Assembly (NCBI GenBank): GCA_944355255.1
Contig: CALVQD010000021.1
Coordinates: forward strand, 1-48,096
DNA length: 48,096 bases
DNA from: an uncultured Bacilli bacterium
GTDB taxonomy: Bacteria > Bacillota_I > Bacilli_A > RF39 > UBA660
Reading direction: 5' to 3'
Under the pieces are notes generated by a model. It saw only the letters and a program-made list of their open reading frames with translations, made no database searches and had not been told where the DNA came from. Made by a program: the position numbers and the translations under genes. This document shows, piece after piece, positions 193-17,143 of the stretch; position 1 is the first letter of the stretch, and every line of letters starts with the position of its first letter.

Positions 193-1920
193 GTGGTACA
201 AGTGAATAGTCTTACTTTAATGATTTTGACAATATATGTAATAACTATTATACTTGTTGTTTTCGTACTGAATTTCATTCAAAATAAGAAAAACAAAAAG
301 TTTAAACACCAATTAGAATTGTTAGAAATAGAAAAAAATGAGATCGATTCAACACCAATTGCTCCAGAACTATCAAAAGTAGAAACTTTTTTAAAAAATG
401 AAAGTGTTGAAGCGATGTATGAAAAATGGAAAGAACGTTTAGATGATATTAAGAAACATCAAATTCCTAAAATTACGGACATGCTATTAGAAGCTGATTA
501 TTCACTTTCTAAAATGGATTATAAAAGTACACTTTATAAAATTGCAAAGTTAGAGATGGAGTTATATAAAGTAAAAGCCAATTCTGAGTTCTTATTAGGA
601 GAGATTCGCTCTATTACGACAAGTGAAGAAAAAAATCGTGGTATTATCACAAAATTAAAGACAAAATATCGTGAATTATATGAAAAATTTGTCGCAACGC
701 GTAGTGAATTTGGAGAAGCAGAAGCCGTTGTACAAAATCAATTTGCGACGATTGCTAAAATGTTTGAAAAATTTGAATTAGTGATGGATAAAAATCAATA
801 TACGGAAGTAACACAGGTTATGAAAGTAATTGATAATTCTTTAAAGCATATGGAAATTGTAGTGGAAGAAGTACCTAGTATTGAATTACTTGCAACGAGT
901 ATTTTGCCAAAGAAGATGGCAGAATCTATGGAGATATATAAGAATATGGTAAGTATGGGATATCCACTTGATTATTTAAATGTAGAATACAATATCGAAG
1001 AAGCCAATAAAAAAATTGCAGATATTAGAAAACGTGTTCAAAAATTAAACTTAGAGGATAGTCTATTTGAATTAAAAATTTTATTAGAGTATTTTGAACA
1101 ATTATATCAAGATTTCGAAAAAGAAAAACAAGAGCGTAGTATTTTTGAAAATGCAAGTAATACTTTCAAAAATAAATTAAACCGTATGAATCGTTTGGTA
1201 GAAGATATTTTCGCAAAGTTTGATGATATTAAAAGCACATATCATTTATCGAATGATGATATCATGGTACTAAATGAAGTAAGAGAAAAATTAGGTGTTT
1301 TGAATCATGATTTTGAAGTATTTCAAGAACATACTGGAAATCATACATTTGCTTATTCAAAGTTAACACATGAAGTAGAATTGTTGACTAATCGTTTGGT
1401 CGCACTACAAGAACGTTTAGATGAAACACTAGAAGTAATTGGTGGCATGAAAGCAGATGAAGTGAGAGCACGTGAACAATTAGATGAAGTTAGAAGTATT
1501 TTAAAGGAATCAAAATTAAAAATTCGCGATTATAATTTACCAGTGATTCCAAATACGTATTTTGTAGAATTGAAAGAAGCAGGAGCTGCTATTAAAGAAA
1601 TTGTAAAAGAATTAGATAAAAAGCCAATTACCATTACTACATTAAATACGAGAGTAGATACGGCACGCGATCTAGTTTTAAAACTATATATGACAACCAA
1701 AGAATTATTAAAAACAGCTATGTTTGCAGAAATGGCAATTGTCTATGGAAATCGCTATCGTAGTTCAGTAGAAGGCTTGGATAAGAAGTTAACATATTCA
1801 GAAGTTCTATTTTATAAGGGAGAATACCATAAATCATTAGAATTAACAATTAACTGTTTGAACCGTGTAGAGCCAGGAATTTACGATAAGTTATTAAAAC
1901 TATATGGAGATGAGAAGTAG
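193..1920 (+). CDS. ezrA: Septation ring formation regulator EzrA (start may be GTG at 202)
   Basis: Single N-terminal TM helix, long coiled coil, C-terminal YGNRYR (QNR-like patch), ~570 aa; lies upstream of thiI-sspA as in Bacilli. Confidence 0.85.
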   Translation: MVQVNSLTLMILTIYVITIILVVFVLNFIQNKKNKKFKHQLELLEIEKNEIDSTPIAPELSKVETFLKNESVEAMYEKWKERLDDIKKHQIPKITDMLLEADYSLSKMDYKSTLYKIAKLEMELYKVKANSEFLLGEIRSITTSEEKNRGIITKLKTKYRELYEKFVATRSEFGEAEAVVQNQFATIAKMFEKFELVMDKNQYTEVTQVMKVIDNSLKHMEIVVEEVPSIELLATSILPKKMAESMEIYKNMVSMGYPLDYLNVEYNIEEANKKIADIRKRVQKLNLEDSLFELKILLEYFEQLYQDFEKEKQERSIFENASNTFKNKLNRMNRLVEDIFAKFDDIKSTYHLSNDDIMVLNEVREKLGVLNHDFEVFQEHTGNHTFAYSKLTHEVELLTNRLVALQERLDETLEVIGGMKADEVRAREQLDEVRSILKESKLKIRDYNLPVIPNTYFVELKEAGAAIKEIVKELDKKPITITTLNTRVDTARDLVLKLYMTTKELLKTAMFAEMAIVYGNRYRSSVEGLDKKLTYSEVLFYKGEYHKSLELTINCLNRVEPGIYDKLLKLYGDEK

Positions 1921-1960
1921 TGAAAACGCTACTTTTTTTAAAAGAATAGAGGGATATATT

Positions 1961-2173
1961 ATGAATGATTCATATGATAAAACAATAGAAGAAGCATCTG
2001 ATAGAAATATATTAAATGATATTGAAACACCAGAAAATAAATTGTTATTAGAAACATTAGAACAATTAGAAGAAAAAGACTATTTAGAACGTTTTGTGGA
2101 AGAAACTGATTATGATAATTTTCAAAACAAATGCGATCATTATGTTGACAGTGATTTCGGTGATAGGAAGTAA
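1961..2173 (+). CDS. Small acidic hypothetical protein (~70 aa)
   Basis: ATG at 1961 preceded by GAGGG; followed by a terminator hairpin. Confidence 0.5.
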   Translation: MNDSYDKTIEEASDRNILNDIETPENKLLLETLEQLEEKDYLERFVEETDYDNFQNKCDHYVDSDFGDRK

Positions 2174-2190
2174 TGTACTTCCTATTTCTT
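2163..2190 (+). terminator. Intrinsic terminator
   Basis: ATAGGAAGTA-atg-TACTTCCTAT followed by TTCTT. Confidence 0.55.
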
Positions 2191-2226
2191 ATCAATTCCG
2201 GTATACTATAAAGTAGGTGATTCTAA

Positions 2227-3099
2227 GTGTCAAAGAAAAGAAAAGTTGATACAAAACGACTATCACGTGTTGAACGTATGAAAAAGAAAAAGAGAAAAAA
2301 GATGTTATCTATGGGAATTTTCTGTCTTTCTGTAGTTGTTTTTTCTGTTTCTATATTTTTGCTATGGAATTGGTTTCAAGATAATCAAAAAATTGATAAA
2401 TTAGCAAAAGAAACTTCAGAAACAGTCGAAAAGAAAGAGAAGGAAGATAATCAGAATACAGAATTAATTAATCCTCCTGAAGCAAGTTTAAAAGACGATT
2501 ACTGGGATTATATTAAAATGAATTTATTAGAAGTAGATTTTAATGAATTATTGAGTAAAAATTCTGATACAGTTGGTTGGATTGAAGTAAAAGGAACAAA
2601 TATCAATTATCCAATTGTACAGACAACAAATAACGAATACTATTTAAATCATGCGTTTGATAAAACAAAGAATGATGCAGGATGGGTATTTATGGATTAC
2701 CGTAATGATGCTAAAAATTTTGATCAAAATACGATTATTTATGCTCATAGTCGTTATAATCAAACAATGTTTGGAAGTCTGAAAAATATTTTATCTAGTT
2801 CTTGGTATAACAACAAAAATAATCATATTATACGTATGTCAACACCAACAGAAAATACGATGTGGCAAGTGTTTAGTGTTTACACAATTGCTGCTGAAAG
2901 TTATTATATTACACCTAGTTTTTCTGATACAAATAGTTATCAAACCTTTTTAAGTACGTTGAAAGGTAGAAGTGAAGTAGAGTTTTCTGCAAATTTAAAT
3001 GTAAATGATAAAATTTTAACACTTTCTACATGTCAAGATAATTTTGGACATCGCGTTGTAATGCATGCGAAATTAATCAAAAGAGAGGTAAGAACTTGA
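2227..3099 (+). CDS. srtB: Class B sortase
   Basis: Basic N-terminus plus TM; GWI..GTNINYP, NTIIYAH (catalytic His), TLSTC (catalytic Cys) and downstream Arg. Confidence 0.9.
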   Translation: MSKKRKVDTKRLSRVERMKKKKRKKMLSMGIFCLSVVVFSVSIFLLWNWFQDNQKIDKLAKETSETVEKKEKEDNQNTELINPPEASLKDDYWDYIKMNLLEVDFNELLSKNSDTVGWIEVKGTNINYPIVQTTNNEYYLNHAFDKTKNDAGWVFMDYRNDAKNFDQNTIIYAHSRYNQTMFGSLKNILSSSWYNNKNNHIIRMSTPTENTMWQVFSVYTIAAESYYITPSFSDTNSYQTFLSTLKGRSEVEFSANLNVNDKILTLSTCQDNFGHRVVMHAKLIKREVRT

Positions 3100-3199: not shown

Positions 3200-4153
3200 A
3201 TGGGAAAGATGAAGTATATTGTATCATTTTGTGCTGTAGGATTATGTGCATTACTTCCAATGGTACATGCAGATGCCAAAGAAGTAAAAGTAAGTGATGG
3301 AGCTGCTTTACAAAATGCCATTGCAACTGCAGAAAATGGAGACGTGATTACACTAGAACAAAGTATTACATTGGATGGTAAAGTAGAACTTACAAGTGGT
3401 GTAGAAGTTACAATTGATGGTGCAAACCATACAATTACTGGTAATCGTGCTGCTACAGGTAGTGTAACAGATAACATTACTTTAATTACTGCATCATTAA
3501 ATGGTTCTAAAATCAAATTAAAAAATGTTACTTTAAAAGATAGTCCAAAATATGGTGTACAAGCTTATAATGGTGGATATGTTAGTCTTCAAAATGTAAC
3601 AATTGACAATTGTAAATATGGAGCTGTATTAGTAAATGGTGGAACAGTAGAAGTTATTTCATTAAACTTAGGTTACAATGGTGAAAATTCAAATAATGGA
3701 ATTGAACTTTCTAAATCAAAAAATATCGTAAGTTCACCAAATCAACCAACAGTAGTAATGAATGGAACTTTAACTTCTACAGAAACTGAAAATGTAATTC
3801 GTTTCGCAGAAGATGAAAATGATGCTACAACAGAAGTTGTTATTGAAAATGCTGAAACTACTACAGATAAAGTATTTGTAAATGATAGCAAACTTGTTGT
3901 AACAGATAATGCTGGAGAAGTAAAATACGAAAGTAATGAAGCTCCTGACATTACTGTAGATGGTGATGAATATGTTGAACCATCAGAACCAACTACACCT
4001 ACAACTCCAGAAGAAACACCATCAACAGGTGATACAACTGAAGAAGTAACAAACCCAGAAACTTCTGATTCTGTATTATTAATTGTTGCTGGATTAATTA
4101 TTTCTGCAGCTGCAGGAACATTTGCTATGAAACAATTAAAAAATCATGCTTAA
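3200..4153 (+). CDS. Cell-wall-anchored surface protein with probable right-handed beta-helix, SrtB substrate
   Basis: Signal peptide (VHA-DA), beta-helix-like repeats (LKNVTL, LQNVTI), P/T/E-rich linker, NPETSD motif, TM helix, basic tail. Confidence 0.75.
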   Translation: MGKMKYIVSFCAVGLCALLPMVHADAKEVKVSDGAALQNAIATAENGDVITLEQSITLDGKVELTSGVEVTIDGANHTITGNRAATGSVTDNITLITASLNGSKIKLKNVTLKDSPKYGVQAYNGGYVSLQNVTIDNCKYGAVLVNGGTVEVISLNLGYNGENSNNGIELSKSKNIVSSPNQPTVVMNGTLTSTETENVIRFAEDENDATTEVVIENAETTTDKVFVNDSKLVVTDNAGEVKYESNEAPDITVDGDEYVEPSEPTTPTTPEETPSTGDTTEEVTNPETSDSVLLIVAGLIISAAAGTFAMKQLKNHA

Positions 4154-4156
4154 TTG

Positions 4157-4184
4157 AAAGACAAGGTTGAAACCTTGTCTTTTT
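4157..4184 (+). terminator. Intrinsic terminator
   Basis: AAAGACAAGGTT-ga-AACCTTGTCTTT followed by T-run. Confidence 0.75.
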
Positions 4185-4215
4185 GTTTGCTATAATATAC
4201 GTCGGAGGAAGAACT

Positions 4216-5397
4216 ATGGAGAAATTAATATTAATTAAGTATGGAGAACTTACTACAAAAAAAGGAAATCGAAATTTGTTTATTAAAATTTTGACGAAAA
4301 ATATAGAAGAGATGTTACAAAATTACGATGTCAATATTATAAAAAATAGAGTACGTATGTTTATTGAAGTAAAAGATCAAAAATTTGATGAAGTCGTAAA
4401 ACAGCTTCAAAAAGTATTTGGATTACATAGTATAGTCATTTGTGAAAAAGTAAATACTAAAGATATAGAAGAATTAAAAAAGATTGCTTTTAAAATGTTA
4501 GAACAAGGAACATTTGATACATTTAAAGTAGTAACAGATCGTGCTGATAAAACTTATCCAATTAAGAGTATGGAAGTCAGTAGACAAGTTGGTGGTTATT
4601 TATTAAAGTATTTACAAAATAAAAAAGTAGATATCCATCATCCACAACTTACACTACATATTGAAATTAGAACAGATGGTACGTATTTTTATACAAAAGA
4701 AGTAGAAGGCATTGGTGGTTATCCAGTTGGTATTCAAGGAAAAGGAATGCTTATGCTAAGTGGGGGAATCGATAGTCCAGTAGCTGGATATCTTGCTTTA
4801 AAGCGTGGTGTTCAAATCGAATGTATTTATTTTGATTCACCACCTCATACAAGTATAGAGGCAAAAAATAAAGTTCTAACATTAGCTTCTATTTTAAATG
4901 AATATTCAGGTCATATTAAAGTACATGTTATTCCATTTACAAAATTACAGGAAGCAATCTTTAAAAATTGTGATCCTACTTATATGATAACCATTATGCG
5001 TAGAATGATGTATCGTATTACAGAACGACTTGCCAAAAAAAGAAATTGTAAAATCATCGTTAATGGTGAAAGCATTGGCCAAGTAGCAAGTCAAACATTA
5101 ACGAGTATGAATGTTATTAACGAAGTAACAAACATGCCTGTAATACGTCCTGTTGCATGTATGGATAAATTAGAAATCATTCGTATGAGTGAAAAAATTG
5201 GTACTTATGAAACAAGTATTTTACCATTTGAGGATTGTTGTACTATCTTTGTACCAAAACATCCAGTCATTCATCCAGATTTAAAAAAAGCAAGAGAAAT
5301 GGAAACTACGTTTGATTATGAGTCATTGATTCAAGAATGTTTAAAAAATGTCGTAACAATTTCCAACTTTGAAGAAGAAACAAGTGATCTATTATAA
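4216..5397 (+). CDS. thiI: tRNA 4-thiouridine synthase ThiI
   Basis: IKYGEL..KKGNR start, THUMP domain, PP-loop SGGIDS, GESIGQVASQT, EDCC; ATG at 4216 after GGAGG. Confidence 0.95.
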   Translation: MEKLILIKYGELTTKKGNRNLFIKILTKNIEEMLQNYDVNIIKNRVRMFIEVKDQKFDEVVKQLQKVFGLHSIVICEKVNTKDIEELKKIAFKMLEQGTFDTFKVVTDRADKTYPIKSMEVSRQVGGYLLKYLQNKKVDIHHPQLTLHIEIRTDGTYFYTKEVEGIGGYPVGIQGKGMLMLSGGIDSPVAGYLALKRGVQIECIYFDSPPHTSIEAKNKVLTLASILNEYSGHIKVHVIPFTKLQEAIFKNCDPTYMITIMRRMMYRITERLAKKRNCKIIVNGESIGQVASQTLTSMNVINEVTNMPVIRPVACMDKLEIIRMSEKIGTYETSILPFEDCCTIFVPKHPVIHPDLKKAREMETTFDYESLIQECLKNVVTISNFEEETSDLL

Positions 5398-5422
5398 CCC
5401 AAAAATTACCATAACATTTTTT

Positions 5423-5451
5423 GTATGAAACCTCAAAATGTACACATTCTA
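5423..5451 (+). promoter_or_regulatory. sigmaG-type forespore promoter of the SASP gene
   Basis: GTATG (5423-27), 17 nt, CATTCTA (5445-51); matches the B. subtilis sigmaG consensus, in front of a sigmaG-regulated gene family. Confidence 0.65.
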
Positions 5452-5476
5452 TTAGTGTACAGGAGGTGAAACTGAT

Positions 5477-5689
5477 ATGAAAAACAGTACAACAAGTAAA
5501 TTAGTTGTTCCTGGAGCTAAACAAGCAATTGAACAAATGAAATACGAAATTGCTAACGAATTAGGTGTTAATTTAGGTCCAGATGCTACTTCACGTGCTA
5601 ATGGTTCAGTTGGTGGAGAAATCACTAAGAGATTAGTACAAATGGGTGAACAACACCTAGGAAGTACATCTACTTACCAAGGAAAATAG
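5477..5689 (+). CDS. sspA: Alpha/beta-type small acid-soluble spore protein
   Basis: [10 protein letters not shown] and [16 protein letters not shown] signatures; strong AGGAGGTG RBS. Confidence 0.92.
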
Positions 5690-5694
5690 TTTTT

Positions 5695-5721
5695 AAAAGC
5701 GCACCATAGGTGCGTTTTTTT
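5695..5721 (+). terminator. Intrinsic terminator
   Basis: AAAAGCGCACC-ata-GGTGCGTTTTT with T-run. Confidence 0.75.
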
Positions 5722-5735
5722 AAGAGGTGAGAAAG

Positions 5736-5825
5736 ATGAAAGAGAAAATAGAAAGAGAATATCACATGGGAGTTCCATATTTTAAAAAAGTAGAGGAACA
5801 AATAGAACAAAAAAAGAAGAGTTAG
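5736..5825 (+). CDS. Unannotated 29-aa small protein MKEKIEREYHMGVPYFKKVEEQIEQKKKS
   Basis: Strong RBS AAGAGGTGA 5 nt before the ATG; hairpin AAAGAAGAG/CTCTTCTTT across the stop codon. Confidence 0.4.
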   Translation: MKEKIEREYHMGVPYFKKVEEQIEQKKKS

Positions 5826-5833
5826 TCTCTTCT

Positions 5834-6130
5834 TTATTCTGTTAAATCACTTGGATTTGGATCAGCACTACATTTTACAAACTTAAAATATTGTTCTTTT
5901 GTACATAGATAATAAGTACAAGTATTATCTGGACAATCAGGAGCAGGTTCTAATTTATATCTTCCGCCTCCTAAGTCTTTTACTTTAGAAAACAATGCTT
6001 CTTTTGGATGAGAAAACAATATTTCTCTTCTAATTGCTCCACTAGGGAACCAAATCGCATAAATAAATATAATAATGATAATTGTTACAAATACAATTGG
6101 AACTTTTGATGATACTTTTCTTGGCATCAT
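5834..6130 (-). CDS. Small membrane-anchored protein with four Cys in the C-terminal domain
   Basis: RBS AGGAGTGA; one TM helix; CPDNTC..LC..KC. Confidence 0.6.
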   Translation of the reverse strand: MMPRKVSSKVPIVFVTIIIIIFIYAIWFPSGAIRREILFSHPKEALFSKVKDLGGGRYKLEPAPDCPDNTCTYYLCTKEQYFKFVKCSADPNPSDLTE

Positions 6131-6855: not shown

Positions 6856-8532
6856 ATGAGAATGATAAAAGTGAATTATAGAAATATTGAAACCAAAGAA
6901 TTTTTAGAAGATTCATCACTTTTGGAAATAAGTGATAGTTTTAAGAAGTACTATAATTATCCTATCTTAGTTGCAAAGGTGGATAATGATATCATGCCTC
7001 TTTCTGAAAAAATAACAAAGAAGTGTGATATTGACTTTTATGATCGTTCGAGTGATGTTGGAAATGAAATATATGGTCGTAGTTTACAATTTGTTCTTAT
7101 TTTAGCTGTGAAACGATTGTTTGGACGTGATGCAGATATTGTAGTGGAACATTCTATTGATAAAGGTGTTTACTGTGAATTACATGGTGCTTCCCTAGAT
7201 AAACCAATTGTTAGAAAACTTGCATCTGAAATGAAGAAAATTGTGGATGAGAATTTGATTTTTACGAAAGTAAGTGTATCGCGCATCGATGCAATTAAGT
7301 ATTTTAAAGCAAAAAAGAAAATGGATAAAGTACATGTCTTAAAATATATCAGTAATACTTATATTAACTTGTATCGATTAGATGATCTATACGATTATTT
7401 CTATGGTGATCTAGTATATAATACCCAAGTATTAGATGATTTTAAACTAACGTATATCAAAGGAAATGGGTTTGTATTAAGCTATCCAGATGTTTATAAT
7501 CCAGAATGTACACTAGACTATAAACATCATCCAAAATTATTTGATGCTTTCCTAGACTATACCAATTGGGGTAGAACATTAGGAATTAATAATGCCGCAG
7601 ATTTGAACGAACAAGTTTCAACTGGTCGTTATGGTGATCTAATTCGTGTTGCCGAAGCATATTACGATGGACAATTATCTAATATTGCTGAAGAAATATA
7701 CAACAAGAAAAATAATATTCGTTTAATCTTACTTGCTGGACCATCTTCAAGTGGTAAGACAACAACAAGTAAAAAATTACAGATATATTTACAAAGTAAA
7801 GGAATTAAAACTCACCAAATATCGATTGATGATTATTACTTAAACCGTGATAAAACACCATTAGATAAAGATGGAAATCCTGATTTTGAAAGTATTCGTG
7901 CCGTTGATTTAGAACTGTTCAATAAACATCTGATGAAATTATTAGAAGGAGAAAAAGTATTACTTCCGGAATTTAATTTTATCACTGGAAAAAGAGAATT
8001 TAAAAAGAAATGGTTACAACTAGGAGAAGACGATATGATTGTGATAGAAGGATTACATGCCTTAAATGATGAACTTACTATGAGTATTGAAAGAAAGCGT
8101 AAATATCGTATTTATATGAGTCCATTAACACAATTAAATATCGATAATCATAATCGTATTCATACGAGTGATACCAGAAAATTAAGAAGAATCATTCGCG
8201 ATAATAAATACCGTGGTTACTCGGCAGCAGATACACTAGCTATGTGGCCAAAAATTCGTGCTGGAGAAGAAAAAAATATTTTTCCATATCAAGAAGATGT
8301 AGATAAAATAATTAATTCTGCACTCCTTTATGAACTCGGTGTATTAAAAACATATGCAGAGCCACTTCTATTTAGTGTGAAAGAAAGCGATCCAATTTAT
8401 CCCGAAGCGTTGCGTTTAATTAACTTCTTAAGAAACTTTTTACCAATTCCTTCAGAGGAAGTACCAAAAGACAGTGTACTTCGTGAATTTATAGGAAATA
8501 GTTGTTTTGGGGAAAATAATCATTTGTCATGA
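6856..8532 (+). CDS. Nucleoside (uridine) kinase with ThrRS-like N-terminal domains
   Basis: N-terminal TGS/ThrRS-editing-like region; P-loop AGPSSSGKTT, IDDYY, IEGLHALN, RRIIRD. Confidence 0.85.
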   Translation: MRMIKVNYRNIETKEFLEDSSLLEISDSFKKYYNYPILVAKVDNDIMPLSEKITKKCDIDFYDRSSDVGNEIYGRSLQFVLILAVKRLFGRDADIVVEHSIDKGVYCELHGASLDKPIVRKLASEMKKIVDENLIFTKVSVSRIDAIKYFKAKKKMDKVHVLKYISNTYINLYRLDDLYDYFYGDLVYNTQVLDDFKLTYIKGNGFVLSYPDVYNPECTLDYKHHPKLFDAFLDYTNWGRTLGINNAADLNEQVSTGRYGDLIRVAEAYYDGQLSNIAEEIYNKKNNIRLILLAGPSSSGKTTTSKKLQIYLQSKGIKTHQISIDDYYLNRDKTPLDKDGNPDFESIRAVDLELFNKHLMKLLEGEKVLLPEFNFITGKREFKKKWLQLGEDDMIVIEGLHALNDELTMSIERKRKYRIYMSPLTQLNIDNHNRIHTSDTRKLRRIIRDNKYRGYSAADTLAMWPKIRAGEEKNIFPYQEDVDKIINSALLYELGVLKTYAEPLLFSVKESDPIYPEALRLINFLRNFLPIPSEEVPKDSVLREFIGNSCFGENNHLS

Positions 8533-8933
8533 TTAAAGTTGCAATCAACGGTTTTGGAAGAATAGGAAAGTTTGCTTATGATCAACTTCATAATGCTGAA
8601 GGTTATCAAATAGTCGCAATCAATGATTTAAGTAGAATATATCATTTAAAAGATGATTCTGCTGTAATTCTTCATGATAAAGAATTTACATCTCCACTAT
8701 GGAGTGAACTTTCAATTGACGTTTTAATCGATACAACTGGAATCACTACAGAAGAAAAAAAACACAAATATTTAGATATAGGAATCAAACATACTGTATT
8801 TGTACCAGATAAAATGGAGCCAACTTTCATTTGGCAGTCAGTTCCTATAATGAATGAAAAAAACTATGCATCAATAGGAAAAGATAGTATTAAAAAATTA
8901 GAAAAAGTCAAAAAAATAGAAAGAGGAAGATAA
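8529..8933 (+). CDS. Truncated GAPDH paralogue (NAD-binding domain only)
   Basis: MIKVAINGFGRIG, IVAINDL, LWSELSIDVLIDTTG; no ASCTTNC catalytic motif; ATGA overlap with the upstream gene. Confidence 0.7.
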   Translation: MIKVAINGFGRIGKFAYDQLHNAEGYQIVAINDLSRIYHLKDDSAVILHDKEFTSPLWSELSIDVLIDTTGITTEEKKHKYLDIGIKHTVFVPDKMEPTFIWQSVPIMNEKNYASIGKDSIKKLEKVKKIERGR

Positions 8934-8934
8934 A

Positions 8935-9942
8935 ATGATAAAAGTAGCAATTAATGGATTTGGAAGAATAGGAAGATTAGTATTTCGTTTAATGGAAGAC
9001 GATGCAAACTTTGAAGTAGTCGCAATCAATGATATTACAGAACCAGAACAACTTGCATATTTATTAAAATACGATACTTCTCATAAGAATTATCGTGTTG
9101 ATGAAATTACATATGGAGAAGATTATATCCAAGTAGGAGATCATAAAATTAAAATCTGTAAAGAATTAGATCCTATCAATTTACCATGGAAAGAATTAGA
9201 AATAGATGAAGTATTTGAATGTACTGGTAAATTTGTAAAATACGAAGATGCTCATAAACATATCGAAGCAGGAGCAAAAAAAGTAATTATCTCTGCTCCA
9301 GGTAAAGGAGATATGAAAACAATTGTATACAATGTCAATAGTGATATATTAGATGGTAGTGAAGAAATCATCAGTGCTGCAAGTTGTACAACAAACTGTT
9401 TAGCACCTGTTGCCAAAGTATTAGATGAAGTATTTGGTATTGAAAAAGGATTCATGACAACTGTTCATGCTTATACCAATGATCAAACTATCTTAGATGT
9501 TGCTCATAAAAAAGGAATCAAAGCACGTCGTGGTAGAGCAGGAGCTGCAAACATTATTCCTGCTAGTACAGGAGCAGCAGTAGCTGTTGGAAAAGTACTT
9601 CCAAACTTACTTGGTAAATTAGATGGAATGGCATTCCGTGTACCAGTAACAGATGGATCTGTTGTCGATCTTACAGTAGAATTAAAAAGAGATGTAACTG
9701 TAGAAGAAGTTAATAATGCATTAAAGAATGCTAGCAATGAAACATTAGGATTCACCATGGATCCAATTGTATCAAGTGATATTATCGGTTCTCACTACGG
9801 AAGTTTAGTAGATGGACTTTGTACTACATTAATTGAAGTAGATGGAAAACAAATGGTAAAAGTAGTTGCTTGGTATGACAACGAAATGAGTTACTCAACA
9901 CAAATGGTTAGAACAGCTAAATTATTAGGAACAATGCTATAA
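8935..9942 (+). CDS. gap: Type I glyceraldehyde-3-phosphate dehydrogenase
   Basis: GFGRIG, ASCTTNC, WYDNE motifs. Confidence 0.98.
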   Translation: MIKVAINGFGRIGRLVFRLMEDDANFEVVAINDITEPEQLAYLLKYDTSHKNYRVDEITYGEDYIQVGDHKIKICKELDPINLPWKELEIDEVFECTGKFVKYEDAHKHIEAGAKKVIISAPGKGDMKTIVYNVNSDILDGSEEIISAASCTTNCLAPVAKVLDEVFGIEKGFMTTVHAYTNDQTILDVAHKKGIKARRGRAGAANIIPASTGAAVAVGKVLPNLLGKLDGMAFRVPVTDGSVVDLTVELKRDVTVEEVNNALKNASNETLGFTMDPIVSSDIIGSHYGSLVDGLCTTLIEVDGKQMVKVVAWYDNEMSYSTQMVRTAKLLGTML

Positions 9943-10009: not shown

Positions 10010-11665
10010 GTGAGTAATGTGACTATTTCTGAATTTAAAAAATTTTCAGATAAACTATCACAGTTTTGTACAGCTCCGACCGATACTTGGAAAAAAAGAA
10101 TTTTATTGAAATCTATTTATGACAATCAATTTATGAATATGGTAAATGATATATTAAATCACATTGATAAAATGACAGGTTTAGAGCTTGATCAATTATT
10201 TGAAAAACTAAGAAATTTATCCAATGATGCATTTAAAAAATTTGACGACTCAAAAGACCCGATACAAAAATATAAAAATTATTTGGAAATTGAAGTATAT
10301 TTTGGAGTCATTGAACAGATAGACGAATTATCTAGCTTTTCCGATCGTATTGGTAAAGAAATGTATGAAAAATATGGAAATGAAACAGTTGCGATGATTG
10401 ATAAAGAAAATCCATCCGTATTGACGAGTTTCCAATTTGAAAAATCAAACATGAATTTTGATGATGAATTAATAAAAAAATATTTAGTATTAAAAAAGTG
10501 GCAGGATTTACAGTATATCTATTGTAATGAAGTCTTAGATGGAATTTGCCATTCAGAGCAATTAGAAGAAGAAGTAATTGATTTACTATCTAAAAAATTG
10601 GAAGTGAAAGATAACGCAATTAATTTGTTAGCATTAGATAATCTTCTTTCAGAGTCAATATTAGATATTGATTTAGTTAGTAAATACTATTTAGCGGGAA
10701 TTCAAAAACAATTGGTTCCTATAATTGGAGGGAAAGGCTACGGCCTTGCCATTTTAAATATTTATAGTTCCATACCTAAGACTTATGTAATACCTATTAA
10801 TCATGAATTTCCAACGGATTTTATTTATAATCTTCCTTCTAATATTAAATATTCTGTACGTAGTTCTGCCGATGTAGAAGATGGAAGAGAAAATTCTTTT
10901 GCTGGAATGTTTTCATCATATTTAGATGTCAATCATAAAGACTTAAAAAAATATTACGATAAAGTGAAAGATTCAGTAAACTCAGATAGGGTTCAATCTT
11001 ATATCCAAAGAAAAAAAGCACAACTACCTAAAATGGCAGTAATTATAGAAGAATTTGTAGAACCACAATATTCAGGTGTTTGGCTAGGCCATGATTTAAA
11101 TGACGGTGTTTATGAAATGGTTTTAGGAAATGGCGAGAAATTAGTAAGTGGAGAAGCTACACCATTTCATTTGAGTGGAGATGATGGTAAAAAAATCAAG
11201 AATTATTTCATTGAACTACAAAATACTTTAGAAAAGGTTGCTGATTTTGAATGGTGTGTAATAGATAATAAGATCGTTATGTTACAGTACCGACCTGTCA
11301 CTTCTAAAATTAAATTAAATCCCTCAAAGATGGATGGATATGGTGTAAGTAGTGGTATTGTAAGTGGAGAAATATGTTTTTTGGAATCTTTAGATGATGT
11401 ACAAAATTTTGAAGAAGATAAAATTTTATTAACTTATTTAACTGATCCTGATTGGACTCCCTATATTATGAAATCAAAGGGAGTAGTCACTGCAATAGGT
11501 GGTTATTTATGTCATACTGCTATTATTACACGAGAACTTGGTATTCCATGTGTGACAAATATTGGAATAGAAAAATTGAACCAGTTAAGAAAAGAAAAAG
11601 AAATTACGATAGATGGTGATTTAGGTACAGTGGAATCAAAAAAAAAAGTAAAAGTATTCAAATAA
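10010..11665 (+). CDS. PEP-utilising-enzyme family kinase (PPDK-N ATP-grasp plus His-swivel domain, RPH-like); start may be GTG at 10019
   Basis: IGGKG, VRSSA.VED...SFAG, G.GEKLVSGE, DFEW..LQYRPVT, GGYLCHTAIITRELGIPCV (phospho-His); no C-terminal PEP/pyruvate TIM barrel; ~230 aa unknown N-terminal region. Confidence 0.85.
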   Translation: MSNVTISEFKKFSDKLSQFCTAPTDTWKKRILLKSIYDNQFMNMVNDILNHIDKMTGLELDQLFEKLRNLSNDAFKKFDDSKDPIQKYKNYLEIEVYFGVIEQIDELSSFSDRIGKEMYEKYGNETVAMIDKENPSVLTSFQFEKSNMNFDDELIKKYLVLKKWQDLQYIYCNEVLDGICHSEQLEEEVIDLLSKKLEVKDNAINLLALDNLLSESILDIDLVSKYYLAGIQKQLVPIIGGKGYGLAILNIYSSIPKTYVIPINHEFPTDFIYNLPSNIKYSVRSSADVEDGRENSFAGMFSSYLDVNHKDLKKYYDKVKDSVNSDRVQSYIQRKKAQLPKMAVIIEEFVEPQYSGVWLGHDLNDGVYEMVLGNGEKLVSGEATPFHLSGDDGKKIKNYFIELQNTLEKVADFEWCVIDNKIVMLQYRPVTSKIKLNPSKMDGYGVSSGIVSGEICFLESLDDVQNFEEDKILLTYLTDPDWTPYIMKSKGVVTAIGGYLCHTAIITRELGIPCVTNIGIEKLNQLRKEKEITIDGDLGTVESKKKVKVFK

Positions 11666-11844
11666 GAACTGCTAAAAATAAAGGTTACTATGAGGTGTGG
11701 AATTCGGAAAACGGATTACTTTTGGGGATTACAAAAAAAGTGAAGGATATTTTAGATAAGTGGTTGAATGATGAAAAATTAAACGATAGCGAATTTCTGA
11801 TATTGAATGAGTTTATGAGAATATATATGGAGGAAACAAAATGA
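11620..11844 (+). other. Cryptic 74-codon open frame with an RRE-like pattern and no good start codon
   Basis: -1 frame relative to the kinase, open from 11620: ...IRTAKNKGYYEVWNSENGLLLGITKKVKDILDKWLNDEKLNDSEFLILNEFMRIYMEETK*; its TGA overlaps the ATG of the PqqD gene. Confidence 0.4.
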
Positions 11845-12101
11845 TATATTATATAATAAATCCGCAAATTGTATTTATGAAAAAAAATGATACATATATT
11901 GTTGATTTGAAAGACGAATATTATTACATTAATGAAATTAGTTATTATATTTTACAGTTTTGCAAACAAAAACATACACTTCAAGAAATTATAGAATATA
12001 TTGTTAATAGCTATGACGCTGATGTCAATCTTGTTGCCAAAGATATGAAAAAAATAGTACAAGAGTTTGCAAATTGTGGTATACTTATCTATAAGAGGTG
12101 A
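11841..12101 (+). CDS. PqqD-family RiPP recognition element (RRE)
   Basis: 86 aa; YYYINEISYYILQFC....TLQEIIEYIVNSYDA...VAKDM..IVQEFANCGIL fits the PqqD winged-helix pattern; RBS GGAGG. Confidence 0.85.
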   Translation: MIYYIINPQIVFMKKNDTYIVDLKDEYYYINEISYYILQFCKQKHTLQEIIEYIVNSYDADVNLVAKDMKKIVQEFANCGILIYKR

Positions 12102-12103
12102 TA

Positions 12104-12211
12104 ATGATGAAAAAATATGAAAAACCACTCTTATTTAAATTAGATAAGTCCTTGGGTGGTATGGCTTCTTCTTTCAGTAAATCATACTGTTATGGTGGAG
12201 AGAGTAAATAA
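12104..12211 (+). CDS. Putative RiPP precursor peptide, 35 aa: MMKKYEKPLLFKLDKSLGGMASSFSKSYCYGGESK
   Basis: RBS AAGAGGTG; YxxPxL motif (YEKPLL); sits between the RRE and radical SAM genes; followed by a hairpin. Confidence 0.8.
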   Translation: MMKKYEKPLLFKLDKSLGGMASSFSKSYCYGGESK

Positions 12212-12236
12212 AAATTCCATTTGATGGAATTTTTAT
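12208..12236 (+). terminator. Stem-loop immediately after the precursor gene (partial terminator or mRNA stabiliser)
   Basis: ATAAAAATTCCAT-ttg-ATGGAATTTTTAT, perfect 13-bp inverted repeat. Confidence 0.6.
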
Positions 12237-12253
12237 ATTATAAAGGTGAATTT

Positions 12254-13198
12254 ATGAAAGAAATTTTTGTTTTAAATAGGAATGTAGCGATGGATAATAT
12301 TATATGGGGAAATGTTAGTGGACCAACTTATTGTTATTTAGAAATCACAAGAAGATGCAATTGTCGTTGTCAGTATTGTCAAGTGGGTGACCAAGTTGCT
12401 AAAGATATAGATATACATTTATTTAGAAATATTATTGATAAATTGCATTTAAGCAATACATTTGAAATTCGTTTAGGTGGAGGAGAACCACTATTGTGTC
12501 CAAATATTTCAAGTTTATTAAAGTATATTTATAGTAAAAAAATGTCTGTATGGATATGTACAAATGGTACATTGCTTACAAGGACAATGTGCGAAATGTT
12601 ATTGGCTAATCATGTGGTGGGGGTTCGTATTAGTATTGATTCTTTAGATCATAAAATTCATAACAAAGTTAGAGGGATGCATAATTGTTTGGAACTGGCT
12701 TTAAAAGGTGCTAGCATTGCCACAAAAACCGGATTGCAAGTTGCTATATGTATGACTATAGGAACCCATAATATTGATGAAGTTAAACAAGTGAAAAAAT
12801 ATGCTCATGATAATGGATATCAATTTTATTCACATTATATTATGCCGGTGGGAAAAGGTAAAACATATTTGCAAAATAATAGTTTACCTTCAAACAGTAT
12901 CGTTCAGCAGTTAAATGATATATATGGTGAAAAGAATTGTGTGGCAGTCAATCAATCAATTTCTATTGATATAGACGGATATGTAAGCCCATGTACTTTT
13001 ATAAAGCCAATTATTCATATTAGTAATATTAAAACAAAAAATATACTAATGGATAAATCGTTACAAAAATATACTTATCCAGTCCCTGAAAATCATTGCT
13101 TTGATTGCCAATTTAATAGTACAAAGAGAAATCATAAATGCATTCTGTCATCGATTTGCAAAGGGGGTTGCTGGGCAATTTATGAACAAGATAAATAA
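12254..13198 (+). CDS. Radical SAM/SPASM peptide maturase
   Basis: CNCRCQYC (CxxxCxxC), GGEPL, TNGTL, RISIDS; SPASM CVA..ISIDIDGYVSPC..CFDC..C..ICKGGC; ATG at 12254 after AAAGGTGA. Confidence 0.9.
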   Translation: MKEIFVLNRNVAMDNIIWGNVSGPTYCYLEITRRCNCRCQYCQVGDQVAKDIDIHLFRNIIDKLHLSNTFEIRLGGGEPLLCPNISSLLKYIYSKKMSVWICTNGTLLTRTMCEMLLANHVVGVRISIDSLDHKIHNKVRGMHNCLELALKGASIATKTGLQVAICMTIGTHNIDEVKQVKKYAHDNGYQFYSHYIMPVGKGKTYLQNNSLPSNSIVQQLNDIYGEKNCVAVNQSISIDIDGYVSPCTFIKPIIHISNIKTKNILMDKSLQKYTYPVPENHCFDCQFNSTKRNHKCILSSICKGGCWAIYEQDK

Positions 13199-14633
13199 AA
13201 TATTATTAGTTTATGCAATTAATCATAATCATAATGATTATAGAAAAATCCAAATGCTGGGTATTTCATATTTACAAAGTGCTTTGCATAAAGAAGGGTT
13301 TGATTGTGATTGTTATGACGGAAATATTGGTACTTTGACAGAAGATGAATTAGTAAAATATATAATAGATAAAGCATATGATTTTATAGGTTTTAGTATT
13401 TTGTTTTCTAATACAAAATTATCCTTAAGAATCGCTGAAAGTATAAAAAACATTAATCCTAAAGTAGTTGTTGCGTTTGGCGGAACAAATGCTACTGTCA
13501 TACATAAAGAATTGATTGATAATTATCCATTCATTGATGTTGTTATGAGAGGTGCGGGTGAGGAGATGATAGTTTCTCTTATAAAGGATTATAATAAGCA
13601 CGGGAAGTTTTTGGCGCTATTAAAAAGTTGTAGTTATCAAAATATTAATAACAAAAGAATATATGCGACAGAGATTGCGGAAATAGAAAATTTAGATTCT
13701 TTAGTATATCCTAATAGAGAGCATGCGTTTGAATACTCATATACTATCATTGGAAATGAAAAATATCATAATATTGATATTTCAACAAGTAGAGGATGTC
13801 CATATCAATGTGTGTTTTGTTCTGTTCCCATGTTTCGTTTGAAATGGAAATCACGAAGTGCAAAAAATGTTTTATCCGAAATACAACAGATTTATAATAA
13901 GAAACACAATATATACATTATTTTTATCGATGATAATTTTTTGATTAATGTTGATCGTGCTTTAGAAATAACTAAAGGTATATATTATATGGGTTTAAAA
14001 GATCGTGTAAGGATTCCATTTGTATTTGCAACACGTGCTGATCAATTGTTAAGGTTGTCTAAAGAAACACTACTAAAGTTTAAACAGTATGGATGTTATT
14101 CTATTGAAATTGGAATTGAAAATGGTTCTAATACTGTGTTAAAAAGAATGAAAAAAAATATAACAGTTGAACAAAATGAGCAAATCATAAGTAATTTAGC
14201 GGAAATAGGAATGAATATTGGGATTGACTTTATTTTATTTGATAACAAAACAACTATAAATGAATTGAAAGAAAATTATGATTTTTTTAAAAGAAATGGT
14301 TTGATTGGATATTATCCAGCATTAATTTATAATCAAATGTATCCTTATCCTGGAACAGAATATGCAGAAAAGAATATTGATATGAACCATTATTTCGAAA
14401 ATAAAGATGTAGAATTTGTATATAAGCAGATTGAATTATTTTCAATAGAAATTCAACCGTTTATTGATAAACTTTTGATAAGTCAGAAATTAGATATAAT
14501 AGATGAGATCTGGTTAAAGACATTACCTTATTTTGCATTTGAAAAGTTTTTATTTCATCATTATAGTTTTGAACAATATGAAAAAGAAAATAATATAAAA
14601 GAAAAAATTAGGATAATGGAGGAGAGTGTATGA
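13182..14633 (+). CDS. Cobalamin-dependent (class B) radical SAM enzyme, probable methyltransferase
   Basis: B12-binding domain (LGISYL, IGFS, VAFGGTNAT, VMRGAGEE), TSRGCPYQCVFC, FIDDNF, IGIENGS, YPYPGT; ATG at 13182 overlaps the SPASM gene. Confidence 0.88.
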   Translation: MNKINKILLVYAINHNHNDYRKIQMLGISYLQSALHKEGFDCDCYDGNIGTLTEDELVKYIIDKAYDFIGFSILFSNTKLSLRIAESIKNINPKVVVAFGGTNATVIHKELIDNYPFIDVVMRGAGEEMIVSLIKDYNKHGKFLALLKSCSYQNINNKRIYATEIAEIENLDSLVYPNREHAFEYSYTIIGNEKYHNIDISTSRGCPYQCVFCSVPMFRLKWKSRSAKNVLSEIQQIYNKKHNIYIIFIDDNFLINVDRALEITKGIYYMGLKDRVRIPFVFATRADQLLRLSKETLLKFKQYGCYSIEIGIENGSNTVLKRMKKNITVEQNEQIISNLAEIGMNIGIDFILFDNKTTINELKENYDFFKRNGLIGYYPALIYNQMYPYPGTEYAEKNIDMNHYFENKDVEFVYKQIELFSIEIQPFIDKLLISQKLDIIDEIWLKTLPYFAFEKFLFHHYSFEQYEKENNIKEKIRIMEESV

Positions 14634-15604
14634 CACAATTAGGACAGTGTATTGCGGTGCATAGAGATTGTTGGGAAATTTTATCATCTGGTAAAAAATA
14701 TCGAGCAATTATAAATAATAAGTATGAAAATATAGTATATCCTGTAGTAGGGGATGTTGTTTCTATTAATATTGATTTAAAGAATCAGTCCTGTATTATT
14801 TTGGATATACAACCTCGTACAACAGAATTGTATAGAAATAAAGATGGACATAAAAAAACAATCGCTGCAAATATAGATATTGTTTTTATTACAACCAGTA
14901 TGAATAAAGAATTCAATGTTGGAAAGCTAGAACGACTTTTAATAATGGTAAATCAAAGTGGTGCAAAACCTTGCTTTGTTTTAACAAAAGCGGATATCTG
15001 TACAAATCCAAATATTTATATTGAACAAATAAAAAGACATTTTTCGACAGTTCCATATGTTGTTACATCTTCTTTAAATGAACAAAGTATTGAGTTATTA
15101 AAAACAATGTGGAATCCTGGAGAAACTGCAATTTTTGTGGGAAGTTCTGGAGTAGGAAAAACGACATTAATTAATACTTTGTTGGGATATCAAGTTGGAA
15201 AAGTATATGAAGTTAGGGAAAAGGATGATAAGGGGCGTCACACGACTACTAGTTCTATATATTTAGAATTACCAGATGGACGAAAATTGATAGATTCTCC
15301 TGGAATAAGAAGTGTAGGTCTTCTCAATCTTGATTTTAAAGATATTAATGAAGTTTTTTCATTCATTAGTGAAAATGAAAAAATGTGTCAATATAAAAAT
15401 TGTACGCATACAAATGAAAATGGTTGTAGAATTATCGAGTTATTAAATGAAGGAATAATTGACGAGAATGATTATCGTCGTTACTTAAAAATGAAACGAC
15501 AAATATTATATGATGCACAAAAAAGTGGAATTGATAATCGTGCAGATTGGGAAAAGAGGAGAGATTTACTACAAAAGAAAAAAAAGTATCGCAAAAGAAG
15601 ATAA
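14630..15604 (+). CDS. rsgA: Ribosome small subunit-dependent GTPase RsgA (paralogue inside the RiPP operon)
   Basis: OB-fold VVGD; circularly permuted G4 TKAD, G1 GSSGVGKTT, G2 GRHTTT, G3 DSPG; Zn finger CQYKNCTHTNENGC. Confidence 0.92.
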   Translation: MTQLGQCIAVHRDCWEILSSGKKYRAIINNKYENIVYPVVGDVVSINIDLKNQSCIILDIQPRTTELYRNKDGHKKTIAANIDIVFITTSMNKEFNVGKLERLLIMVNQSGAKPCFVLTKADICTNPNIYIEQIKRHFSTVPYVVTSSLNEQSIELLKTMWNPGETAIFVGSSGVGKTTLINTLLGYQVGKVYEVREKDDKGRHTTTSSIYLELPDGRKLIDSPGIRSVGLLNLDFKDINEVFSFISENEKMCQYKNCTHTNENGCRIIELLNEGIIDENDYRRYLKMKRQILYDAQKSGIDNRADWEKRRDLLQKKKKYRKRR

Positions 15605-15964: not shown

Positions 15965-17143
15965 ATGAAAAAGACGATTCGAGATTATGACTTATTTGAG
16001 AAAAGAGTGTTAATTCGTTGTGATTTTAATGTGCCAATGAAAGATGGTGTGATTACTGATGATTATCGTATTCAATCTAGTTTAGATACAATTCGATATG
16101 CATTAGATCATCATGCGAAAGTAATATTACTTTCACATTTAGGAAGAATAAAAGAAGAAAGTGATAAAAAGAAGAATGATTTAAAACCAGTAGCAGTTCG
16201 TCTTAGCGAATTGTTAGGTAAAACAGTAACATTTATACCAGAAACAAGAGGACAACAGTTGGAACAAGCTGTTATGGAAATGAATTCAGGAGATGTTATT
16301 TTAATTCAAAATACAAGATATGAAGATTTAGATGGTAAAAAAGAAAGTAAGAATGATCCTGAATTAGGACGTTATTGGGCCTCTTTGGGAGATATTTATA
16401 TTAATGATGCCTTTGGTACTTGTCATCGTGAACATGCTTCTAATGTTGGAATTGCGACTCATTTACCAAGTGGAATTGGCTTTTTAGTAGAAAAAGAAAT
16501 AGAAAATATAGAAAATGTGGTAGCTCATCCAGAAAGACCATTTACAGTGATTTTAGGGGGAGCAAAAGTTAGTGATAAAATAAAAGTCATAGAAAACTTA
16601 GTGACAAAAGCAGATCATATTTTGATTGGTGGTGGAATGGCTTATACATTTTTAAAAGCCCAAGGCTTTGAAATTGGAAAGTCATTGTTAGATGAAGAGT
16701 CTATTGCATTTTGTCAATCCATGTTATCTAAGTATCCAGATAAGATTGTATTACCAAAAGATCATTATGTATCTGAGTCAACAGATGGACAAGGATTATT
16801 AAAAACAGTTTCAGAAACAGACGCAAAAGATATGGGATTAGATATTGGAGATGAAACGATTCAAATGTTTTCAGAAATATTAAAACAAAGTCATACTGTG
16901 ATTTGGAATGGACCGGTTGGTTTATTTGAAAATCCATCATTTCAAAAAGGAACAGTTGCACTTTGTGAAGCAATGAAAGAAGTTTCTGGTAAGACAATTG
17001 TCGGTGGTGGAGATACTGCTAGTGCAGTAAAAAAACTAGGATATGAAGATGTTTTTACTCATATTTCAACTGGAGGAGGAGCCTCTTTAGAATTATTGGA
17101 AGGAAAGATATTACCAGGAATTGCTTGTATTTCAGATAAATAG
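15965..17143 (+). CDS. pgk: Phosphoglycerate kinase
   Basis: RCDFNVP, SHLGR, NDAFG, GGAKVSDK, WNGPVG, STGGGASLE. Confidence 0.98.
   Translation: MKKTIRDYDLFEKRVLIRCDFNVPMKDGVITDDYRIQSSLDTIRYALDHHAKVILLSHLGRIKEESDKKKNDLKPVAVRLSELLGKTVTFIPETRGQQLEQAVMEMNSGDVILIQNTRYEDLDGKKESKNDPELGRYWASLGDIYINDAFGTCHREHASNVGIATHLPSGIGFLVEKEIENIENVVAHPERPFTVILGGAKVSDKIKVIENLVTKADHILIGGGMAYTFLKAQGFEIGKSLLDEESIAFCQSMLSKYPDKIVLPKDHYVSESTDGQGLLKTVSETDAKDMGLDIGDETIQMFSEILKQSHTVIWNGPVGLFENPSFQKGTVALCEAMKEVSGKTIVGGGDTASAVKKLGYEDVFTHISTGGGASLELLEGKILPGIACISDK

Follow-up and report, generated by a model that had tools for sequence, protein, structure and literature searches.

A small open reading frame (ORF) at positions 12104 to 12211 of contig CALVQD010000021.1, from an uncultured Bacilli bacterium (assembly GCA_944355255.1), is probably the precursor of a rare and unnamed family of peptides that are made on ribosomes and modified after translation (RiPPs), which would be matured by radical S-adenosylmethionine (radical-SAM) enzymes in the manner proposed below. 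The whole stretch of 48,096 nucleotides, read on the forward strand, is referred to here as the window. The ORF had been picked out in a first-pass annotation of the window, and both its position and its reading are borne out by the sequence and its translation:

12104..12211, + strand, precursor peptide gene, ATGATG...TAA with the stop codon included; 35 amino acids, or 34 if translation starts at 12107
12092..12099, + strand, Shine-Dalgarno-like AAGAGGTG, read from the sequence, inside the last codons of the PqqD gene

The translation of 12104-12211 (+), read from the sequence, is MMKKYEKPLLFKLDKSLGGMASSFSKSYCYGGESK. Its last 16 residues contain one Cys, two Tyr, one Phe and five Ser, as had been counted earlier. 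Between the AAGAGGTG element and the first ATG (12104) lie 4 nt, and 7 nt separate it from the second (12107), which is the likelier start since relatives of the peptide begin with MKKY. The peptide is present in a single copy in its own genome and has 0 matches in NCBIfam and 0 in Pfam.

Conservation of the precursor peptide

The radical-SAM enzyme with a SPASM domain that is encoded next to the peptide belongs to a small family, with 32 database proteins at E ≤ 3e-32 before the next match drops to 1e-21. An alignment of 29 of these sequences was used to scan public genomes and metagenomes, and 12 loci were recovered. A small ORF of the same build occurs in seven of them (L002, L003 and L005-L009), where the SPASM enzymes have 26-46% identity to that of the window. 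In all seven, peptide and radical-SAM gene share a strand, with the peptide on the 5' side, and in six it is directly upstream. The spacing can differ markedly between relatives. For example, L008 has about 1.16 kb without a long open frame (~4840-6000) between the peptide and the SPASM gene, and the gap in the near-identical L009 is about 100 nt; the longer spacer is possibly the remnant of an insertion.

A strict pattern for this build, [YF]..P.{17,24}C[YF].{4}[KR]-stop, was run on 62 sources (308,724 nt) in all six frames. Matches are confined to the window with its copies L001 and L014 and to the seven related loci, and the remaining 52 sources have none. A profile of eight peptides searched against 1.84 billion representatives gave 20 matches at E ≤ 1e-3, of which 16 are peptides of the same build and four are repeat proteins. 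The 16 are 33-48 amino acids long, with the exception of a 141-residue fusion of PqqD protein and peptide. This fusion is also seen in L007 (508-933; database copy P0124), where the two form one open frame with no stop between them. The frame may be a natural fusion of a recognition protein with its substrate; a TTG at 829 could alternatively start the peptide separately. No source gives a family name for any of the ten peptides that were looked up, one of which is annotated as 'hypothetical protein'. A single peptide of the 22 aligned weakly matched a curated peptide model, that of the SSH-motif RaS-RiPP peptide (E 8e-4).

The alignment of 22 peptides shows where the conservation lies. Pro8 and Cys29 are invariant, and the distance between them varies by about one residue. 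Position 5 is aromatic throughout (Tyr in 18, Phe in 4), so that the YxxPxL motif noted earlier in the leader is kept by 22 of 22 family members in the form [Y/F]-x-x-P-x-hydrophobic. At the other end the consensus is S-[Y/W]-C-[Y/F]-x4-[K/R]-stop. Ser27, two residues before the Cys, is found in 21/22; the residue preceding the Cys is Tyr (13), Trp (8) or Val (1), and the one following it is Tyr (19) or Phe (3). The C-terminus falls exactly six residues past the Cys in every peptide, and the last residue is Lys in 18 and Arg in 4. In a genome of the same genus, G374, the first 20 codons of the peptide are present with one change, D14N.

It had been suggested at the outset that a conserved peptide be looked for at orthologous loci. 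Motif, position, strand and exact C-terminal length are all kept, at seven of seven. Together with the 16 database representatives, this comparison indicates that the ORF is a genuine conserved precursor peptide and not a chance ORF.

Leader recognition and the modifying enzymes

The peptide gene is part of a co-directional, tightly packed cluster between gap (8935-9942) and pgk (15965-17143), in the order PPDK_N/PEP-mobile gene, PqqD, peptide, SPASM, B12 radical-SAM and RsgA-like. The other members are:

10010..11665, + strand, kinase-like enzyme of 551 amino acids: an N-terminal part of unassigned family, then PPDK_N (PF01326, 1.7e-25) and PEP-utilizers mobile (phospho-His; PF00391, 6e-19) domains
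11841..12101, + strand, discrete PqqD-type RiPP recognition element (RRE) of 86 amino acids (PF05402, 3.1e-10; 40.7 bits against a cut-off of 23.4)
12254..13198, + strand, radical-SAM/SPASM peptide maturase of 314 amino acids, without an N-terminal recognition domain (PF04055, PF13186)
13182..14633, + strand, B12-binding radical-SAM enzyme (PF02310, 7.4e-18; PF04055, 5.4e-18); start taken at an ATG that gives a 17-nt overlap with the SPASM gene
14630..15604, + strand, cluster-specific RsgA-like GTPase paralogue of 324 amino acids (PF03193, 1.9e-45)

The three Pfam assignments around the peptide (PF05402, PF04055 and PF13186, in the order PqqD, peptide, SPASM) are all above their cut-offs.

A sequence search with the PqqD-type protein returned only seven near-identical proteins. 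A profile of six PqqD proteins of the family, compared with solved proteins, matched the lasso B1 proteins TbiB1 (1.6e-9) and TfuB1 (3e-9) best, followed by a lasso PqqD chaperone (5.4e-7) and PqqD itself (3.8e-4). By this measure the recognition protein appears closest to lasso B1 proteins, with the lasso PqqD models of NCBIfam reaching 24.2 bits on the 86-residue protein against a cut-off of 70.

A model of the complex of PqqD protein and peptide supports binding of the leader. Its ipSAE is 0.76, against 0.02 for the best control. The mark used had been benchmarked on 80 solved complexes, 58 of which reached it, and on 110 mismatched pairs, of which 2 did; these counts hold only roughly here because own alignments were used. 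At least 76% of contacts are common to the runs, and the partner pLDDT is at least 54. The modelled interface joins peptide residues 2-13, 15 and 17 to residues 25-34 and 54-81 of the PqqD protein. Leader residues 2-13 are placed against beta-strand 25-34 and helix 68-79, and the tightest pairs are those of peptide residues 8-12 with residues 27-34. The expectation that the leader would add a beta-strand to the RRE is therefore reproduced in its geometry by the model, with the reservation that the pass may partly be memory.

The remark that no lasso cyclase is present also holds, at the scale of the genome: in the 90.8%-complete assembly there are 0 matches to the cyclase family PF00733 and 0 to the B2 peptidase family PF13471. 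The conserved leader, the B1-like RRE, the lack of matches to cyclase and B2 peptidase, and the complex model thus place a lasso-type recognition pair in a radical-SAM cluster, much as had been proposed.

The SPASM enzyme retains CxxxCxxC and seven C-terminal Cys residues, all invariant in 29 homologues. Its AlphaFold2 model (pLDDT 82) has SkfB as the top Foldseek match (E 1e-15, TM 0.67), then SuiB and CteB, and SkfB is also the best match of its sequence profile (8e-25). The NCBIfam scores are SkfB 61.6 bits against 300, AlbA 70.2 against 850, PapB 69.6 against 340, PqqE (TIGR02109) 54.6 against 381.35 and MftC (TIGR03962) 81.5 against 265. The B12-binding enzyme, whose nearest solved relative is OxsB, is likewise below cut-off in all its NCBIfam matches, among them BchE (138.9 bits) and the RiPP C-methyltransferase TIGR03975 (115.9 against 281.85). 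In all loci long enough to show it (L002, L003, L005, L007 with two copies, and L008), its gene lies 3' of the SPASM gene. Because both radical-SAM enzymes score so far below the equivalog cut-offs, homology assigns a reaction to neither. Of the enzymes with similar folds, SkfB and CteB form thioethers from Cys; the link formed by SuiB is between Lys and Trp. With Cys as the only invariant residue of the core, and with the likeness to SkfB and CteB, one thioether is the best guess; the bond type is left open by SuiB, the enzyme of a Lys-Trp C-C bond, which matches the fold about as well.

A kinase-like gene is found in all seven readable loci, in two unrelated forms. The PPDK_N/PEP-mobile form, whose nearest solved chains are deposited as phosphoenolpyruvate synthases, is present in the window, L005 (40% identity) and L006 (42%). 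An HprK-like form is present in L002 (1773-2981), L008 (3233-4387), L009 (1693-2829) and L007 (~5331-5861). The neighbours of L003, a locus full of frameshifts, are left out of these tallies. The two forms look like non-orthologous replacement of a single function; that this function is supplied by two unrelated enzyme families argues that it is essential. The contig of L002 also carries an NTP_transf_5 gene.

These parts can be combined into a proposed pathway. The leader, [Y/F]-x-K-P-x-L, would be held by the discrete PqqD-type protein as an extra strand beside its beta-strand 25-34. The recognition protein would then offer the peptide's S-[Y/W]-C-[Y/F]-x4-[K/R] terminus to the SPASM enzyme, and this enzyme would form one crosslink from the invariant Cys, a thioether with a nearby residue being the most likely bond. 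The B12 radical-SAM enzyme would add a C-methyl group or a second crosslink. The kinase-like enzyme would phosphorylate a hydroxyl, for which the best candidate is Ser27; such phosphorylation is a reasonable inference from the conserved kinase-like function, the precedent of HprK and the NTP_transf_5 gene of L002. A stem-loop past the stop codon of the peptide would raise the ratio of precursor to enzyme message. The RsgA-like GTPase that accompanies the cluster would serve for protection or as a copy of the target. The best guess at the chemistry is a Cys-based crosslink together with methylation and Ser phosphorylation.

Known systems and alternative explanations

The cluster shares several features with the paeninodin-type lasso and LPP (linear polyphosphorylated peptide) systems of Bacillota. 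In those systems a discrete PqqD-type protein binds a [Y/W]xxPx[L/V/I/F/A] leader (PMC13381572; PMC9266682), and here such binding is predicted by the complex model. The LPP family combines a lasso-like YxxP leader with a discrete recognition protein in a non-lasso RiPP (PMC13381572), and this pairing is therefore not new in principle. HprK-type kinases phosphorylate and polyphosphorylate precursor Ser in paeninodin-type lasso and LPP systems (PMC9266682, PMC13381572), and the NTP_transf_5 class is named in the paeninodin/LPP toolkit (PMC13381572). Among the relatives of the window cluster, HprK-like kinases occur in L002, L007, L008 and L009 and paired ABC exporters in L002 and L008; an NTP_transf_5 nucleotidyltransferase (contig of L002) and an S24/S26-like peptidase (L007) are seen in single loci. 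The affinity of the family's recognition-protein profile to lasso B1 is a further point of likeness.

The differences are equally clear. In contrast to lasso clusters, no cyclase or B2 peptidase was found, and the conserved core enzymes are two radical-SAM enzymes. The LPPs are defined by a SpI-like peptidase, an HprK-like kinase, an NTP transferase as well as an MsbA-like exporter, in addition to the recognition protein (PMC13381572); none of the first four is found in the window cluster, and its relatives carry some of them. The extended LPP leader, YxxPxVLxHQxIxFETxxS, is absent here, and only its YxxPx-hydrophobic part is common to both. The core is short and highly conserved, whereas LPP C-termini are variable (PMC13381572). 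The window has a PPDK_N/PEP-mobile enzyme in place of the HprK-like kinase of paeninodin and LPP systems, and an RsgA-like GTPase; the words 'GTPase' and 'RsgA' occur nowhere in the main text of PMC13381572, nor do 'radical', 'rSAM' or 'SPASM'.

A second set of parallels is offered by radical-SAM RiPPs. SkfB and CteB, of the sactipeptides and ranthipeptides, are the best sequence and fold matches of the maturase, and the single invariant core Cys fits with them, Cys being the obligatory donor of thioether links. In contrast to SkfB, AlbA and PapB, the recognition domain is here a separate protein, and the maturase is far below the cut-offs of those families. Three parts, namely a small peptide, a discrete chaperone of the PqqD family and a SPASM enzyme, are combined as in PqqA/PqqD/PqqE and MftA/MftB/MftC. 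PqqE acts strictly through PqqD and links Glu and Tyr of PqqA (PMC9389541), and a conserved aromatic residue near the C-terminal end of the peptide is a further similarity to PQQ and mycofactocin precursors (PMC9389541). The window differs from both in falling short of their equivalog models and in having extra B12 radical-SAM, kinase-like and RsgA-like genes; relatives of its cluster carry exporters and peptidases. B12-dependent radical-SAM RiPP enzymes share the arrangement of B12-binding and radical-SAM domains encoded beside a RiPP precursor. With TIGR03975 below its cut-off, methylation and crosslinking are indistinguishable here. In biphenomycin-like peptides a B12 radical-SAM enzyme reportedly crosslinks Tyr residues.

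The cluster has the defining features of none of these groups, be it lasso, LPP, double-glycine/PCAT, the sactipeptide/ranthipeptide equivalogs, PQQ or mycofactocin. It would work like other recognition-protein-dependent radical-SAM RiPP pathways. No paper on the peptide family or on this gene combination was found in a literature search that covered sources other than subscription journals and supplementary files.

Some observations weigh against the pathway proposed above. Neither radical-SAM enzyme has an NCBIfam match that comes near the curated cut-off. Pfam and NCBIfam scans of the six window cluster proteins revealed no exporter and no peptidase, and such a cluster fits an intracellular product equally well. 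Conservation of the core is higher than is usual for an antimicrobial peptide. The role given to the RsgA-like gene is inferred purely from co-occurrence. The pass of the complex model may be memory because solved lasso B1 entries are the nearest sequence matches. No contig of the one RNA-library run lies on the peptide, which is neutral as to its transcription.

An intracellular product is the basis of one alternative, in which the peptide is the precursor of a small-molecule cofactor or metabolite in the manner of PQQ or mycofactocin, with the SPASM enzyme crosslinking a conserved aromatic residue and the product being excised. A discrete PqqD protein with a SPASM enzyme that lacks a recognition domain is the arrangement of PqqD and PqqE (PMC9389541), distant hosts keep a strongly conserved core whose spacing to the C-terminus is fixed, and the lack of exporter and peptidase in the window cluster agrees with it. 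The related clusters point the other way, with paired ABC exporters in L002 and L008, an S8 protease in L002 and the S24/S26-like peptidase in L007. A cofactor would also sit poorly with the sporadic distribution of the cluster, which is reflected in the RsgA-like gene (2/401 genomes), in the different gene that a same-genus genome has at the site and in the L009 copy beside a TraG/VirD4 coupling protein gene. Given that the scores for PqqE (54.6 bits, cut-off 381) and MftC (81.5, cut-off 265) fall so short, and with no partner dehydrogenase in the cluster, this explanation is considered unlikely. That the frame is open by chance, or is a small regulatory leader without a relevant peptide product, is highly improbable: the ORF is short, without NCBIfam or Pfam matches and without an RNA-library contig, but its motif, position, strand and exact C-terminal length are kept in seven of seven loci with enzymes only 26-46% identical, and 16 database representatives have the same build.

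The remaining alternative concerns the way the peptide is cut. According to the first-pass annotation, a 19-residue double-glycine leader would be cleaved after Gly19 by a peptidase-containing ABC exporter, freeing a 16-residue core. LGG does occupy residues 17-19 of the window peptide and its nearest relative, P0129, and the genome encodes one C39-peptidase ABC exporter, the only one it has, on contig C41 (~4126-6039; L061 1492-3405). However, GG at residues 18-19 is confined to these two of the 22 peptides, and other members have AS, AQ, TQ, SN, AL and similar pairs at that position. A scan of the six window cluster proteins and the ABC exporters of L002 revealed no C39 peptidase domain (the L008 exporters were matched by tblastn only). 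The peptidases of related clusters are of other types, S8 and S24/S26-like, and no double-glycine leader peptide was seen on the upstream side of the C41 exporter, the side that was read. Double-glycine cleavage is thus quite unlikely, and the 19/16 division into leader and core, which would depend on it, is without comparative basis. The Gly-Gly of the window is better regarded, from the alignment, as a local variant of a small-residue stretch than as a cleavage signal of the family.

Expression, the RsgA-like gene and genomic setting

A stem-loop follows the peptide directly:

12208..12236, + strand, 13-bp stem-loop overlapping the peptide stop codon, then a U-rich stretch; -14.1 kcal/mol, z -3.9, with 0 of 200 shuffles as good

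Placed between the precursor gene and those of the enzymes, it is probably an attenuator or a partial terminator. A hairpin past the precursor is the usual arrangement for keeping precursor message above enzyme message. Hairpins are present at the equivalent site in L005 (z -5.8), L006 (-3.0) and L002 (-2.9), and a weaker one in L008 (-1.3); L007, L009 and L003 have no significant hairpin past the peptide. The stem-loop at 12208-12236 is not listed by a consensus terminator scan because it has too few G-C pairs. In the RNA-library run, one of four runs, a 242-nt contig covers 12384-12625, inside the SPASM gene, and DNA carry-over is possible; the same library contains a 34-nt piece of an otherwise unlike contig.

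The RsgA-like protein has 28% identity to the housekeeping RsgA of its own genome, encoded on contig C2 between a PASTA kinase gene and rpe. Its identity to the copies in other clusters is higher, 42% in L005, 39% in the contig of L002 and 38% in L008. The genes are at 2872-3900 in L005, ~11990-12952 in L008 and 1495-2454 (- strand) in L052. In L005 the gene lies between the B12 gene and the PPDK-type gene, and in L008 and the contig of L002 it follows the exporters. The paralogue is present in four of four clusters for which downstream DNA is available; the 6.2-kb contig of L007 has no RsgA-like gene, and L006 and L009 are cut short. At E ≤ 1e-35 the cluster type is found in two of 401 genomes of the order, G000 and G374, both known carriers. 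This distribution, together with the co-occurrence in clusters, indicates that the paralogue belongs to the cluster. On the simplest reading it would be a gene for protection or a copy of the target, which points to the small ribosomal subunit; it is an unusual member and a testable lead to the target.

A broader interpretation would make the family a new RiPP class built on the recognition-and-kinase toolkit of lasso peptides and LPPs, with two radical-SAM enzymes replacing the cyclase. The small ribosomal subunit or the assembly GTPase RsgA would be the target of its product, and the RsgA paralogue found across distant Bacillota would be a protection factor or a resistant copy of the target. 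Taken as a whole, this is speculative and rather unlikely. Radical-SAM-modified peptides made by gut bacteria provide new peptide chemistry as well as narrow-spectrum antimicrobials or signals. The present family joins two radical-SAM enzymes of different types, and its core, in which two aromatic residues flank a single Cys, is very short and highly conserved. Since its recognition module is common to lasso peptides and LPPs, it bears on the reuse of RREs between RiPP classes and on the avoidance of cross-talk.

The cluster is accessory and sporadic across Bacillota. Within the same genus, G374 carries it (97-98% identity), the assembly being broken where the SPASM gene lies. Another genome of the genus, G132, has an ABC exporter of about 550 residues and a 121-residue ORF between gap and pgk (C1 ~49495-51891; L056, L060), so the site is variable. 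The SPASM profile found no close orthologue elsewhere across the order, the best match being 8.6e-40 against 3.3e-138 for the window's own protein. Farther away, L002 comes from a Lachnoclostridium metagenome-assembled genome. The cluster copy of L009 directly follows genes for a TraG/VirD4-type coupling protein and a helix-turn-helix protein (11-1094), which suggests carriage on a conjugative element. A plasmid collection gave no match at 1e-20. The GC content of the cluster (27-30%) hardly differs from that of its flanks (30-32%) and is thus no compositional sign of recent transfer.

Several smaller observations were made on the loci themselves. The S8 protease of L002 (5941-6672) is short, 243 residues, with QhpE as its best match (1e-22, below cut-off). 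QhpE is a protease of quinohemoprotein amine dehydrogenase maturation, where thioether crosslinks in the small subunit are made by a radical-SAM enzyme. The gene order of L005 (peptide, SPASM, B12, RsgA-like, PPDK-type) is a cyclic permutation of that in the window (10010-15604), and no PqqD gene is found in the 317 nt upstream of its peptide. In the window, a 134-residue ORF at 8529-8933 shares its first 13 residues with the full gap gene that comes next (8935-9942), and its match to the GAPDH NAD-binding domain covers positions 1-37 only; apparently the 5' end of gap has been partially duplicated here.

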